NCBI GenBank assembly: GCA_000004695.1
Contig: CM000152.2
Location: forward strand, 5,280,001-5,344,000
Direction: 5' to 3'
Length of the DNA stretch: 64,000 bases
From: Dictyostelium discoideum
Taxonomy: Eukaryota
In this document: positions 13,330 to 19,779 of the stretch, in pieces
How positions within the stretch are numbered: position 1 is the first letter of the stretch
Layout: each line of letters starts with the position of its first letter
The notes under the pieces: generated by a model
Told to the model about the DNA's origin: nothing
Seen by the model: the letters and a program-made list of their open reading frames with translations, nothing else
Databases searched by the model: none
Translations under genes and position numbers: made by a program

Positions 13330-13427
13330 CTATATAAATAAATGTATATAATAATTAAAAAAAAAAGAAAAAGAAAATTGAAGAATAAAAATAAAATAAT
13401 AAATGTTTAAATTCTGAATTAACATAC

Positions 13428-14049
13428 CAAGTAATAAACTGACACCACCCACAATTGATAGATTTGAAGTACCATTTTGAATTGATTGAAAACCCATTGC
13501 AATTGAATTCAATGATGAAGAACATGCTGTATCAATTGTCATTGATGGACCTCTGATATCATATGAAAATGATAATCTATTTGAAATGGTATGAAGAACA
13601 TTTGATGCGAAATAATTTTCAGATGTTTCATTAAAGTCTCTATTTGTTGTTGAATAATCTAATGTTGAGCAACCAATGAAACAAGATGTATTTGAACCTC
13701 TAATATCGATTGGATCGATGAATGCATCTTCTAATGCTTCCCATGTACACTTTAATAGTAATCTTGTTTGTGGATCCATTAGGGGTACTTCTGATGGATT
13801 GATTGCGAAATGAACTGGATCGAAATCACTCCATTCTTTTAATGGTAATAATCCACCAAATTTATTATTAACTTCACCGAGTAAATTGATATTGTCACTC
13901 CATCTTTCTGATGTTTCAACAATACCACTGAATCCATTCTTTAAATTATTCCATAAATGTGAAACACTACCATTATTAATTGATTCTTTACCTTGTGGAA
14001 TTCTAAATCCAATACCTACAATTGCAATTTCTTTGTTTTCTAATTTCAT
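13428..14049 (-). CDS. PKS exon 1 (start [20 protein letters not shown]…; KS active-site Cys in [10 protein letters not shown])
   Basis: The first in-frame ATG is at 14049-14047; the track ORF starts at an upstream TTG. KS N-terminal motifs present. Donor …GGVSLLL G|GTATGTT at ~13428. The three exons total 8340 nt, i.e. 2780 codons including the stop. Confidence 0.75.
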
Positions 14050-15247
14050 TTTTAATATTTCCAAAATAAAGTAAATTATATAAAATTATTATCAGAAAAA
14101 TAAAGTTATTAAAAAGGTATTTGTTATTAATATTCCAAATAAAAATAAAAAAAGATTCCATTTAAATAAATTATAAAAAAAAAAAATATGTAAATTAAAA
14201 AATTGATTTTACACACATACTCACATATAAACATATAATATATTTAATTAAACCAAAATATATTAGCTGTTTTGAAATAATCTCAAACTTTTCATCGTCA
14301 AGAGCAAACCATTGGTTGTTAATTTTATTTTAATGAAATTGTGATTTGTAGATGATGAGTAGATTTTATTTTTTAAAAAAAAAAAAAAAAATAAAAAAAA
14401 AACGTCTGGGTAGTTTTAAAAAAAAAAAAACACCTGGATGGTTTGAAAAAAAAAAAGTGTAATAGGGAGGTAAAGGGAAAAAAAAAAAATAATAATAATA
14501 AACTAAAATAAAAGGAGAAAAAAAAAACAAGAGTGGGTGAAAAAAAAAAAAAAATAAAAAAAAAACAAAATTTAAAAAATATCTATGTTTTTCTTTAATA
14601 GATCTTTTAAAATGGGAAAATAAAAAAAAAAAAAAACTAATTAAGATCTTGGTATTAAAAAAAAATCTCCACAGCAAAAGGGTTAAAAATGAATATGTTA
14701 ACACAGATTTGGGTGTAATTTTTTAAAACTAATAAGAGGTATTTCAAGAAAAAGCCTCTTTAAAACTATATATGGGTTTTTTTTTTTAAATCCTTTAATA
14801 AATTTATTTCCTTATCGATATTGTAAAATTATTTTTATTTTCGGGATTATTAATCTGACATTATAATTATTATTATTTATTAATTTTTTTTTCTTTTAAT
14901 ATTCTAAAAAATACCTAATAATTTCATAAAATAATTTATCATTTAAAAAAAAAAAAATTACAAATAAAAAAATTTAATCAATAAATTAAAATTTTAAAAC
15001 ATTTAATTTTTTTTTTTTTATCAAATTATGCGTGGTGTTTTTTTAAAATATCTTTTTTTAATTTTTTTAATTCTGAGAAAATAATTAAAATAATGAAAAA
15101 AAAAAAAATTTTATTTTTTATTTTATTTTTTTTTTTTCTATTGTTAAATTTTTATTCTTTGGTTATCTTTTTTTTTTTCAATTCTATTAAATTTTACCTT
15201 TTTTTTATTTTTTTTTTTTTTATATATTATTATTATTATTATTAAAG

Positions 15248-15388
15248 ATGTCAATGGTTTTAACCAAAGTTCCACCATTTCATTATATCCATGTTTTGGA
15301 TACAAATATACAAATTGTAAAGATGATTGAAGGTCCAATATCATATCTTGTAAAAGAACATGAAAAAATTGTAGTTCAACCAACAAGA
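15248..15388 (+). CDS. Major vault protein (MVP) homolog, exon 1 (MSMVLTKVPPFHYIHVLDTNIQ…VVQPTR)
   Basis: PPFHYIHVLD matches the vault N-terminus PPYHYIHVLD. Donor AGA|GTAAGA at 15388; acceptor ccaaag|ATGCAT at 15466. Confidence 0.8.
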
Positions 15389-15465
15389 GTAAGAAAAAAA
15401 TAAGAAATAAAGTTTTTTTAAAAATATTACACATCATTTTTAATACTTTTTTTTTTTTTCCAAAG

Positions 15466-16587
15466 ATGCATGTTATTCAAAATAATGAATATTGTATAAT
15501 TGAATCACCAGTTATTAGAGATCAAGATAAAAAGACAGTATTGGTTGATAAATACGGACAAGCAAAATTAAAACATGGATCAAGAGAGATTAGATTTGAA
15601 AGTGGGGAACCATTTCCATTGTATCCAGGTGAGAGTATGATCGGAAAGATATCACCATTGACAGTGATTTTAAATAATGAAGCCATCGTAATTAAAGCGT
15701 TAGTTGACTTTTTGGACACTGAAACTTCTAAACTTATTTCAGCAGGTGATGAATGGTTAATGTATGGTCCAGCAACTTATAAACCACGTGTAGAAGAGCA
15801 TGTCAAAGAAATTAGAAAAGCATTCATAGTGAAACCACACAACGCTTTGAAAATCATGGCAACCAATGATTTCAAAGATAAAGTCTACAAACAACAACGT
15901 AAATCAGGTGATGAATGGTTGATGACTGTCGAAGGACCATACATTCTAGATGCTTATGAAAAGTTGGTGGAAATCGTTGAGCCATATGTATTGGATGATA
16001 ATAACTCAATCCATGTTGCTGCCAATAGGAAGTTTGTAGATTCGAATGGTGTCGAGAGAAAAAAAGGTGATAAATGGTTACTCACAAAACAAGACACCAC
16101 TTTATTCATCCCTCAGCCATCTGTCACCGTTGAGAAGGTTGTGCCTGTGACTGTGCTAACCCAGTTGAATTATGTTATTATTAGTGATCCGTATGATGAG
16201 GAGACCGGTGCACCTTTGTTGGGTGAGAAAAAGATTGTTAAAGGTCCAAAGAATTTCTTTCAAAAACCTGGTGAGACTTTAAGCATTATTCAAAGTACTT
16301 ACATTTTGGAACCAGAGGATGCAGTTTATGTAAAGGTTTTAGAAGAATTTGAAGAATCTGTTCGTTCTGGAAATACTCTAAAAAATGTAACTAGAAAATC
16401 AGGTACTAAATATTTAGTCTATGGTCCATGTGAATACGTACCACCATTAACTGTACAAGTATTAAAGAAAACTAAAGCTATCATTTCAAATGAACAATTT
16501 GGAATTTACATTTTTGATTTGATGCCTGCTTTAAATGTTTTTGTAATTTTATTAATCTTTTATTTAATTTTAAAATTCTTTTTTTAG
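15466..16587 (+). CDS. MVP homolog exon 2, covering MVP repeat domains only (GDEWLMYGPATYKPRVEE…, GDEWLMTVEGPYILDAYE…, GDKWLLTKQDT…). MVP similarity ends near 16520; the last ~20 codons are a hydrophobic low-complexity tail before the stop
   Basis: Clear collinear similarity to the MVP N-terminal repeats. The conserved shoulder and cap-helix regions (about 400 more aa in canonical MVP) were not found downstream; 16590-17060 is A/T homopolymer. Confidence 0.75.
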   Translation: MHVIQNNEYCIIESPVIRDQDKKTVLVDKYGQAKLKHGSREIRFESGEPFPLYPGESMIGKISPLTVILNNEAIVIKALVDFLDTETSKLISAGDEWLMYGPATYKPRVEEHVKEIRKAFIVKPHNALKIMATNDFKDKVYKQQRKSGDEWLMTVEGPYILDAYEKLVEIVEPYVLDDNNSIHVAANRKFVDSNGVERKKGDKWLLTKQDTTLFIPQPSVTVEKVVPVTVLTQLNYVIISDPYDEETGAPLLGEKKIVKGPKNFFQKPGETLSIIQSTYILEPEDAVYVKVLEEFEESVRSGNTLKNVTRKSGTKYLVYGPCEYVPPLTVQVLKKTKAIISNEQFGIYIFDLMPALNVFVILLIFYLILKFFF

Positions 16588-16920
16588 AAAAAAAAAAAAA
16601 AAAAAAAAAAAAAAGAAAAACTATCATTTTTCAAATAATAAACTCTTTTGTGGATTTAATAGGAAAAAAAAAAAAAAAAAAAAAAAAACCAGAATGGTTA
16701 CATTCATTTTTTTTTTTTTTTATATTTTATATCATTTTGTGTATTTATATACAAAATTAATATTAAAAATAAATAAAATCAAATCATTGTATAAAAAAAA
16801 AAAAAAAAATAATATGGAAAATAAAATGAAAATATTTTTTTTTTTTTTTTTTTTTAAGTGTAAATAAAAATAAAAATAAAAATAAAAATAAAAAAATAAA
16901 AAAATTTTATGGAATATTCA

Positions 16921-16951
<31 letters not shown>

Positions 16952-17090
16952 TATTTTTTGAATTTAATAATTTTTTGTAAAATAAATAATTAAAATCATT
17001 ATTACACTGAATATACAATTACACCATACTATTTTTTAAAATTTTATTATTTTTTTATTTTTGGATCAAAAAGGGAACAATAATAATAAT

Positions 17091-17182
<92 letters not shown>

Positions 17183-17219
17183 TAATAATAATAACAGTAT
17201 ATATATTAGGTTTACAAAG

Positions 17220-18359
17220 ATGAGTTATAAAAACCATTCGAATTTAGTTTACAAATTACAAGCTATAGAGAGAGAGAAATCAAGAGTTGAAGATAGACTT
17301 GAAAAATTACACGATGATAAAAATAATTCATACCAACAACAACAACACTCTGGCTCAAAAAGAGGGAGAAATAATAATAATGATAATAGAATTCAAAATA
17401 ATAATAACAATAACAATAATAATAATAATGATAGAGCTAGAAAAAGACAACAAATTGAAAGTGGAGAAATTATATCAGGTGGTGAAACAACAACTACTAC
17501 AACAACCTCAACTTCAACTTCAACAAATGATAAACCCAAACCAATTTTAAATCAAGAACAACAAAAAAGAGGTAGAATGTTTGTTGGTTTATTAAATAGA
17601 ACATTACAAGATTTTCAAAAAGATATTACAAAAAAAACACAATCTGATAAAAAGAGAGAACAAATTGAACAAAAAGTTGAAAATACAATTAATCAAGAGG
17701 AACAAGAAAGAATTGAAAAAGAGAAATTAAAAAAACAACAACAACTTGAAAAAGAAAAGAAAATTCATGATGAATTAATTAGAAAACAAGAAGAACTAGA
17801 GGATAAAATATTACAAGAGACTTGGTCACTTCATAACAAAGTTTTATCCAATTTCAAATATAAAACTTTAAAATCCAATCCTCAAATTTATTTTTCACTT
17901 TCACCATTAGCCGATAAACATGGTTTCACTCTAAAGAATTACTTTAAAAATGATACTGACATCTCAATGAATCATTATGATAATGATACCAATAATAACA
18001 ATACTTTTAGCAGAAAAAATAAACCTGTCTCTGAGAAACCTGAAAAAAGAAGACGAAAACAACATGAAGATGATGATGATGATGATGATGATGATAATGA
18101 TAATGATGATTTTGATGAAAATGAAGATAATAATAATAATAATAACAACAATAATAGAAATGATATTAATAATAATAAAAATAATCAGGGTGAAAAAAAA
18201 GAACAAATTTTTGAAGAGATGAATAATAATAATGATGATAAAAACAAAAGTGATGGTAGTGGTGATAGCAGTGGCATTACAACTCCACCCCCCGATGAAA
18301 TAAAACCAACTGTAATTGAAAAAGATGAAAAATTAGACATTAATGAAAAAACTGTGTAA
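17220..18359 (+). CDS. Pinin homolog (pinin/SDK/memA domain), coiled-coil protein with N-rich and acidic low-complexity tracts
   Basis: KRGRMFVGLLNRTLQDFQKD…REQIEQKVE…ETWSLHNKV…YKTLKSNPQIYFSLSP is collinear with human pinin RRIFGLLMGTLQKFKQE…RQEIEQKLE…EEWNEHNAKI…KTKPHLFYIP. The ATG at 17220 is in frame with the upstream (AAT)n tract, which has no ATG and is probably 5' non-coding. Confidence 0.75.
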   Translation: MSYKNHSNLVYKLQAIEREKSRVEDRLEKLHDDKNNSYQQQQHSGSKRGRNNNNDNRIQNNNNNNNNNNNDRARKRQQIESGEIISGGETTTTTTTSTSTSTNDKPKPILNQEQQKRGRMFVGLLNRTLQDFQKDITKKTQSDKKREQIEQKVENTINQEEQERIEKEKLKKQQQLEKEKKIHDELIRKQEELEDKILQETWSLHNKVLSNFKYKTLKSNPQIYFSLSPLADKHGFTLKNYFKNDTDISMNHYDNDTNNNNTFSRKNKPVSEKPEKRRRKQHEDDDDDDDDDNDNDDFDENEDNNNNNNNNNRNDINNNKNNQGEKKEQIFEEMNNNNDDKNKSDGSGDSSGITTPPPDEIKPTVIEKDEKLDINEKTV

Positions 18360-19048: not shown

Positions 19049-19135
19049 CTAAATTTATAATTAAAAAAATAAAAATAATAATATGTTAATATGTATAATT
19101 TCTTTTTTTTTTTTTTTTTAATAATTAATTCTTAC

Positions 19136-19779
19136 GTTCCACAAATTTCAGCAAAATTAGCCCAAATTGTTTTTTTAGTACCTTCACGCATAACTTGTGG
19201 TGGTTTCATTGTACGTTTTTGGTCAGAGATTAAATCTGGATTATTAGCTTGGAGGAGATGATAGATTCTATAGGTGAGTTCAGAATATTTGTAATCACGA
19301 TCAGTACCAGCCCATGGGATAGTACCTTGAACAAAGGTATCACCATCACTTGTTGTAATGGTTTTTTCTTTTGATTCACCATCTTCGGTTGGTTCGGTTT
19401 CAGTTGGTTCAGTGGTGGTGGTGGTGGTGGAGGTGGTGGTGGTAGTTGAGGATTTGCTTGATTTCTTCTTCTTTTTCTTTTCACCCATAAACTCTGCTTC
19501 TATATCTTCGTCATGTGCACCTTCATTTTCAAGTTTTTCAATTGCTTCACTGTTTTCACCTTCAGTTGATGCTAATAATGCTGCTTTCTTTTTCTTTCTC
19601 TTTTCTTTTTTTTCATCTTCTTGTTCTTGTTCATCCTCTTGTTGACTCATCATTGCTAAAGTTTTAGATTTTAATTTCTTTTTCTCTTCTTCAGTTTGTG
19701 CTGCTGAATCCTTTGATTTCTTCTTCTTTTTCATTGTAGTATCAAATACTAAAACATTTTCTTCTTCTGTTGCTGACAT
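19136..19779 (-). CDS. eIF2 beta exon 1 (lysine-box K-rich N-terminal region; …REGTKKTIWANFAEIC)
   Basis: Poly-Lys boxes and TKKT..ANF..IC match eIF2-beta. Donor GGAAC|GTAAGA at 19136. The two exons total 945 nt, i.e. 315 codons including the stop. Confidence 0.85.

Follow-up and report, generated by a model that had tools for sequence, protein, structure and literature searches.

What does a major vault protein (MVP) gene encode when it ends where the repeat domains end? The question is posed by DDB_G0282033, which lies at positions 15248 to 16587 on the forward strand of a 64,000-nucleotide stretch of the Dictyostelium discoideum AX4 genome (the window) and codes in two exons for a protein of 420 amino acids (aa). 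Residues 1 to 398 are MVP repeats R1 to R7; similarity to MVP is then lost at ...GIYIFD, beyond which come 22 hydrophobic residues before the stop codon. A preliminary description had recognized a truncated MVP gene of ∼420 codons and offered three accounts of it: a pseudogene derived from a 5' partial duplicate, a gene whose 3' half lies elsewhere, or a repeat-only vault-like protein. As judged by sequence comparison, the best explanation is a functional, anciently diverged MVP paralog in which only R1 to R7 are kept. The ∼20 hydrophobic codons at its end, which had been taken for a run-on into A/T-rich sequence, are predicted to form a conserved C-terminal transmembrane anchor, and this changes the kind of protein at issue: DDB_G0282033 is likely a tail-anchored protein, probably of the endoplasmic reticulum (ER), with its R1-R7 rod displayed to the cytosol. 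The last of the three accounts is correct but incomplete, the predicted membrane anchor having been overlooked.

The spliced product is 100% identical to XP_640422.1 (DDB_G0282033; UniProt Q54T29) in an exact-sequence look-up and is annotated there as a hypothetical protein. The reading frame of 420 codons contains no frameshifts and no internal stops, in agreement with the length and the two intact exons first proposed, and the gene is organized as follows.

15248..15388, + strand: exon 1, codons 1 to 47, with the ATG at 15248 and the first strands of MVP repeat R1 (MSMVLTKVPPFHYIHVLD...), aligned to MVP from residue 7
15389..15465, + strand: intron of 77 nt, phase 0, GT..AG (GTAAG...AAAG), A/T-rich, at a position after codon 47 that is common to the D. 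dimigraforme ortholog
15466..16587, + strand: exon 2 as a whole, ending in TAG
15466..16518, + strand: exon 2, residues 48 to 398, the remainder of R1 through R7 and the first beta-strand of a would-be R8 (GIYIF)
16519..16584, + strand: C-terminal hydrophobic segment, residues 399 to 420 (LMPALNVFVILLIFYLILKFFF), a predicted single transmembrane helix and tail anchor
16585..16587, + strand: stop codon TAG; orthologs likewise stop 0 to 30 residues past the hydrophobic segment
16637..16642, + strand: AATAAA hexamer 50 nt 3' of the stop, a possible poly(A) signal, for which an A/T-rich genome makes the evidence weak

The body of the protein is that of a vault wall. Pfam assigns Vault_2 (PF17794) at residues 48 to 109 and four Vault (PF01505) repeats, with E values of 3e-51 and 5e-25 that are far better than the gathering cut-offs, and finds in the 420-aa product neither Vault_3 (PF17795) and Vault_4 (PF17796), which represent R8 and R9, nor the SPFH-like shoulder (PF11978). 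The cap-helix coiled coil (∼150 residues) and the cap-ring are also absent, as the protein ends 22 residues past R7 and contains a single helix, predicted at residues 400 to 419. A phmmer search against PDB sequences aligns residues 5 to 401 collinearly with MVP residues 7 to 395 (E = 1e-92) and ends with GIYIFD opposite MVP GIYVQD, which is where the loss of similarity had been placed. The repeat signatures were also described correctly in kind, although three GDEWL-type motifs had been counted and only two are exact, accompanied by one GDKWL and one SGTKYLVYGP. An AlphaFold2 model built from a 20-sequence alignment has a mean pLDDT of 90.1, with an all-beta body spanning residues 5 to 396, and its top Foldseek matches are the murine MVP R1-R7 crystal structures 3gng and 3gf5 (E = 5e-36; TM-score 0.71 on the target), with vault cryo-electron microscopy chains also among the best. 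The prediction, made with confidence for the body, is that it adopts the fold of the solved R1-R7 rod and that the tail is a single helix.

That tail, residues 399 to 420, is the only candidate membrane segment. Its Kyte-Doolittle 19-residue mean (KD19) is 2.53 at residues 402 to 420 and does not exceed 1.53 elsewhere, so there is no second transmembrane segment, and the N-terminus is the first R1 beta-strand, homologous to cytosolic MVP; from the KD19 profile and this homology, the protein appears to have no N-terminal signal peptide. The protein ends ...LILKFFF, with 0 residues past the segment, and thus has the single hydrophobic segment within ∼30 to 40 residues of the C-terminus that defines a tail-anchored protein. 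Short homologs of the same type all lose MVP similarity at the same point (...G/N-I/L-Y-x-F) and then have one ∼20-residue hydrophobic segment at or near the C-terminus. There are 63 distinct homologous tails with a hydrophobic segment at the equivalent position, and KD19 maxima in the tail-bearing set are 2.0 to 3.1, whereas 35 of 37 full-length MVPs do not exceed 1.85. What the homologs conserve in the segment is its hydrophobicity and position and not its sequence; because residue identity is free to vary while these two properties are kept, the segment is best read as a lipid-embedded anchor.

The architecture of R1 to R7 followed by a hydrophobic tail is conserved across Amoebozoa, in all three phyla. 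Searched with a profile built from 20 tail-bearing sequences, a set of 1.84 billion cluster representatives gives 2456 matches; among the top 150 of these, ∼35 clusters (50% identity) align through the tail positions and then end, and full-length MVPs (820 to 900 aa) align only to approximately profile position 400. Named tail-bearing members include Nolandella, Flabellula, and Pyxidicula in Tubulinea, Paramoeba, Pellita, Luapelamoeba, and Mayorella in Discosea, and dictyostelids, Cavostelium, and Mastigella in Evosea; in most of the non-dictyostelid species the short form is represented by complete transcriptome open reading frames (ORFs) and is therefore expressed. No tail-bearing form is present outside Amoebozoa among the named matches, the sole named non-amoebozoan short form being from the apusomonad Thecamonas trahens (P0363), without a membrane-length tail, and the divergent tail-bearing clusters P0104, P0108, P0112, and P0072 are unlabelled metagenome or Logan contigs. 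A second, named-protein search with a 37-sequence profile is dominated by canonical MVPs and adds little. Phylogeny was by neighbor joining (NJ) only, using the R1-R7 columns shared by 36 tail-bearing sequences and 37 cluster representatives of full-length MVPs; the tree places 34 of the 36 tail-bearing sequences, and none of the 37 full-length MVPs, in one clade. DDB_G0282033 has a mean identity of 46% to the tail-bearing forms and of 34% to full-length MVPs (maximum 39%).

Within the dictyostelids, repeat-only orthologs of 415 to 437 aa are present in every genome found, at least eight, comprising other D. discoideum isolates, D. citrinum, D. firmibasis, D. dimigraforme, D. purpureum, Tieghemostelium, Acytostelium, and Heterostelium. 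Identity to the D. discoideum protein is 89% in D. dimigraforme, 65% in D. purpureum, 54% in Tieghemostelium lacteum, 51% in Acytostelium subglobosum, and 49% in Heterostelium album. Three orthologous loci were retrieved and their coding sequences rebuilt for Nei-Gojobori estimates, which give a dN/dS of 0.099 against D. dimigraforme (dS 0.59) and of 0.164 against D. purpureum. Since dN/dS is only 0.10 to 0.16, purifying selection is strong, and DDB_G0282033 is an intact gene under such selection.

The membrane and the topology are suggested by what lies beyond the hydrophobic segment. Extensions of at least 8 residues follow it in 23 of the 63 tails, and 12 of these 23 end in [DE]L: -KDEL (P0362), -KKEL (twice), -GKEL, -VKEL, -APEL, -QNEL, -MSEL, -EAEL, -HVEL, -DVEL, and -SADL. 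The expectation from composition is 1.2% (binomial P = 1.6e-17), and 4 of 326 non-tail proteins in the set have such an ending. Since KDEL-like termini make sense nowhere but inside the ER, the pattern argues for a lumenal C-terminus and a cytosolic R1-R7 body; the C-termini of the homologs would cross into the lumen, giving a tail-anchored topology in the ER or the nuclear envelope. With its only hydrophobic segment at the extreme C-terminus and no signal peptide, the protein would be inserted post-translationally as a tail-anchored protein, most likely into the ER or nuclear envelope, with the short post-helix extension of many homologs lumenal and a ∼20-nm R1-R7 rod in the cytosol, R7 lying beside the membrane and R1 pointing outward.

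An outward-facing R1 invites comparison with the vault waist. Vault halves are joined by R1-R1 contacts that include an Asp39-Arg42 salt bridge, Glu4, Glu5, and Arg37, and hydrophobic Ala6, Ile7, and Ile36 (PMC2752026), and in DDB_G0282033 Asp39, Arg42, and Ile36 are matched by Glu37, Lys40, and Leu34, respectively. An acidic residue occupies the Asp39 position in 30 of 36 tail-bearing sequences versus 18 of 37 full-length MVPs, and a basic one occupies the Arg42 position in 23 of 36 versus 13 of 37. Because the cap-helix coiled coil that drives 39-mer assembly is absent, DDB_G0282033 would be unable to form a vault shell by the known route. Its R1-tip residues would be consistent with a half-vault, or some other MVP-like rod, docking onto it head to head. 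By virtue of the retained acidic/basic pair, the rod could serve half-vaults, or proteins with an affinity for MVP repeats, as a docking site or scaffold at the membrane, a role that is speculative and, for vault halves, rather unlikely. A larger and likewise unlikely proposal is an ancient membrane-embedded half-MVP, in Amoebozoa and perhaps other eukaryotes, forming a palisade of R1-R7 rods on the ER or nuclear envelope to which a cytosolic half-vault docks by R1-R1 contacts, closing a membrane-sealed chamber; if true, it would give a physical vault-membrane link and the first genetically tractable handle on vault function.

Several observations weigh against an ER tail anchor and have to be set beside the accounts that compete with it. 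The D. discoideum tail is 14% GC, and 4.2% of A/T-rich intergenic 66-nt windows yield a stop-free hydrophobic stretch by chance; dN/dS is also higher in the tail, at 0.26 to 0.68 over only 22 codons, and the D. discoideum tail on its own is weak evidence for an anchor. Support for the tail-bearing clade is moderate, with at least 90% of the tail-bearing set standing apart from all full-length sequences in 44% of bootstraps (relaxed bootstrap 0.44). Most of the [DE]L endings (KEL, PEL, NEL, SEL, AEL, and VEL) depart from the strict K/HDEL consensus, and the dictyostelid proteins have neither a lumenal extension nor a [DE]L motif; DDB_G0282033 itself does not end in K/HDEL, and its assignment to the ER, which is the most likely one, is by homology with [DE]L-bearing homologs. 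The proposed docking of vault halves, finally, draws on the conservation of two residues. The chance occurrence of tail-like peptides in intergenic DNA, and the loss of every domain needed for vault assembly, would also suit a decaying 5' partial duplicate of mvpA or mvpB whose hydrophobic end is read-through into A/T-rich noncoding DNA. Such a pseudogene is nevertheless very improbable, and the comparative data refute it: there are no disabling mutations, dN/dS is far from 1, and the form is kept across Amoebozoa rather than being restricted to one lineage. The dictyostelid orthologs, from at least eight genomes, match DDB_G0282033 in length, the D. dimigraforme gene has its intron at the same place, and no full-length MVP approaches the mean identity to tail-bearing forms. 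For the tail, the question is decided by the comparative data, which include GC-richer homologs with Ala/Val/Leu-rich tails.

The other account that would deny the protein its integrity, a full-length gene whose R8-R9, shoulder, and cap-helix exons lie beyond a very long intron or an assembly break or are joined by trans-splicing, draws on the coincidence of the end of similarity with a domain boundary, a possible exon-junction site, and on a GT dinucleotide inside the tail-coding region. It too is highly improbable, and the suggestion that the 3' half lies elsewhere is refuted as far as it can be tested. A tblastn search with eight shoulder-containing MVPs detects no R8-R9, shoulder, or cap-helix, whether in the 64 kb of the window or in the flanking 6 kb of the three orthologs; all matches in the window and the three loci are confined to R1-R7, with alignments stopping at query residues ∼364 to 399 and none continuing past 400. 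Independent genome annotations and assemblies, and complete transcriptome ORFs from nine further genera, all stop right past the hydrophobic segment, and two full-length MVP genes are known from other D. discoideum loci (PMC12547018 Table S3). Logan contigs with the exon-2 ORF (L004 and L005) retain the intron and break in a poly-A run past the stop, and are uninformative on splicing. An origin by alternative splicing, considered for short and long isoforms with the same Trinity gene ids, was rejected after inspection of P0274 and P0099: the former is a full-length MVP that diverges past ...KTGKVR into unrelated sequence, probably a retained intron, and the latter is an N-terminally complete Mastigella tail-anchored protein.

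If the protein is complete, the hydrophobic end could still be something other than an ER anchor. A soluble repeat-only MVP fragment is viable, as recombinant R1-R7 is a stable soluble fragment (PDB 3gf5) and related short MVPs (Thecamonas P0363, and P0109, P0116, P0117, and P0124) end at the same point without a membrane-length segment; in DDB_G0282033 the hydrophobic C-terminus would then be buried or make a protein contact, and the protein would cap, poison, or regulate growing vault walls or half-vaults in the cytosol. We consider this unlikely, because a 19- to 22-residue helix with Kyte-Doolittle values of 2.0 to 3.1, in which hydrophobicity is kept but sequence is not, is the signature of a lipid anchor and not of a specific interface, and KDEL-like termini past the segment are sensible only if lumenal. 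There is similarly little reason to favor a tail anchor of another organelle, whether the mitochondrial outer membrane, the peroxisome, or contractile-vacuole or endosomal membranes. The dictyostelid tails are short, without a lumenal extension, and have a conserved Lys 4 to 8 residues from the end (...LILKFFF, ...FFIKLFF, and ...YLLKCLLYGF), and some tail anchors of membranes other than the ER are typically short and flanked by basic residues; however, the segment is highly hydrophobic (I/L/F/V-rich) and the extension-bearing homologs have KDEL-like ends, both of which favor the ER. A tail-anchored protein of the ER with a cytosolic R1-R7 rod is the reading that we prefer.

Some relatives of DDB_G0282033 have unusual features of their own. 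The Synstelium polycarpum ortholog (P0008, 463 aa) carries a precomputed Pfam CUE ubiquitin-binding domain (PF02845) at its N-terminus in place of the first R1 strands, which may reflect either a fusion in the gene model or genuine acquisition of the domain. At the 3' end of Heterostelium album PPL_00988 (L003:7244-7475), an annotated 3' intron adds 22 residues ending ...CIDVEL, which fits the [DE]L pattern, and the unspliced alternative is 418 aa ending ...KLLVYMFFG. A third class of short MVPs (P0109, P0116, P0117, P0124, P0171, P0201, P0046, and P0363 of Thecamonas trahens) has R1-R7 only and no membrane-length tail; these end in a short aromatic motif (...LG[LI][YN]xFFW...), and some have a conserved N-terminal extension (NF[HR]Y[SG]K[MI]SDR[ED]R). 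Bdelloid rotifer "major vault proteins" P0052 (Adineta ricciae) and P0368 (Rotaria socialis; 13 cluster members) are ∼551 aa, stop inside the shoulder (...INLSGS), and then have two hydrophobic segments; they represent either an independent membrane-anchored MVP or intron read-through in gene models. Full-length MVP homologs labelled "colicin uptake protein" or "hypothetical protein" (P0308 and P0337 to P0342) rank among the best matches and are from cyanobacteria (Aerosakkonema), an Anaerolineae metagenome-assembled genome, and Candidatus Parabeggiatoa, and bacterial MVP homologs have been reported before (PMC3762200; bioRxiv 10.1101/872010).

In the window as a whole, intergenic GC is ∼10% and introns are short. 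The spacer to the next gene is 632 bp (16588-17219) and not the 450 bp of homopolymer first described, with 9 to 13% GC, A/T runs, and an (AAT)n tract; the pinin gene reported to start at 17220 is there, as an ORF with a Pinin_SDK_memA domain (Pfam). Directly upstream of this pinin-family ATG, the long (AAT)n microsatellite at 17085 to 17180 is listed among the mechanically called ORFs as a poly-Asn frame that opens at an upstream TTG. A bacterial promoter and terminator scan of the 3' flank of DDB_G0282033, irrelevant to a eukaryote, finds nothing above shuffles. The upstream neighbor, on the opposite strand, is a polyketide-synthase (PKS) ketosynthase N-terminus (13330-14064, −); the PKS neighbor is kept in D. 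dimigraforme (L002:317-3648, −), and D. purpureum and H. album have other neighbors. Further downstream, an ORF at 19132 to 19779 (−) has an acidic and lysine-rich N-terminal region and a weak eIF-5_eIF-2B match (E = 0.001, below the Pfam cut-off), and probably represents a single exon of a gene resembling that for translation initiation factor 2 beta.

Few ribonucleoprotein particles of eukaryotic cells are as large or as abundant as vaults. To our knowledge, their function is still unsettled after ∼40 years, and we know of no description of MVP other than as a soluble cytosolic shell protein. In the MVP family, a conserved paralog in which a membrane anchor is fused to the vault barrel wall would represent a new architecture, and the findings suggest a previously undescribed link between vault proteins and membranes. 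They offer a testable hypothesis of how vaults, or partners that bind MVP, come into contact with the ER or nuclear envelope, in an organism that has DDB_G0282033 beside two canonical MVPs (MvpA/MvpB, DDB_G0269156 and DDB_G0291127) and in which knockouts, tagging, and cryo-electron tomography are routine. The gene itself is already annotated, and what is probably new is a conserved half-MVP with a probable ER tail anchor. A 2025 study of trypanosome vaults lists XP_640422.1 as "MVPshort (truncated MVP homolog)," covering 6 to 414 of TbMVP1, along with Mastigamoeba MBAL_000468 and MBAL_014565 and N-terminal-only forms in several Discoba (PMC12547018 Table S3), and two surveys of MVP evolution discuss only full-length MVPs for Amoebozoa. 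No description of a membrane-anchored MVP or of the DDB_G0282033 anchor was found by full-text literature search. At least some "short MVP" entries dismissed as truncations in recent surveys would belong to a distinct protein family.

Set against canonical rat and human MVP, R1-R7 of DDB_G0282033 is 37 to 39% identical to the mammalian protein over ∼390 residues and collinear with it, without rearrangement; the predicted fold matches the solved R1-R7, and PFPLYPGE, GDEWL, and the R1-tip acidic/basic pair are kept. It differs in having a C-terminal transmembrane helix instead of R8-R9, the SPFH-like shoulder, the cap-helix, and the cap-ring, and would be an integral membrane protein that forms no 39-fold half-vault through a cap-helix bundle, whereas MVP is cytosolic. 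The "MVPshort" of PMC12547018 includes this same protein, but short forms are regarded there as truncations (and, in trypanosomatids, as potential artifacts of sequencing), and the word "transmembrane" occurs 0 times in its text. The Thecamonas trahens P0363-type short MVPs share the R1-R7 extent, end within a few residues of the same point, and lie near the tail-bearing forms in the NJ tree, but their C-terminal motif, short and aromatic (...FFW...), lacks the length to cross a bilayer. For the predicted topology, the closest parallel is with tail-anchored ER proteins that carry a retrieval signal, of which yeast Sec20p, with a C-terminal HDEL as its lumenal retrieval signal, is an example. 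Such proteins likewise have a cytosolic N-terminal domain and a single transmembrane domain at the extreme C-terminus, and many of the DDB_G0282033 homologs have a very short lumenal KDEL-like peptide; there is, however, no sequence relationship to proteins of the Sec20p type, the Dictyostelium protein has no lumenal extension, and the domain presented to the cytosol would be the rod of a vault wall.

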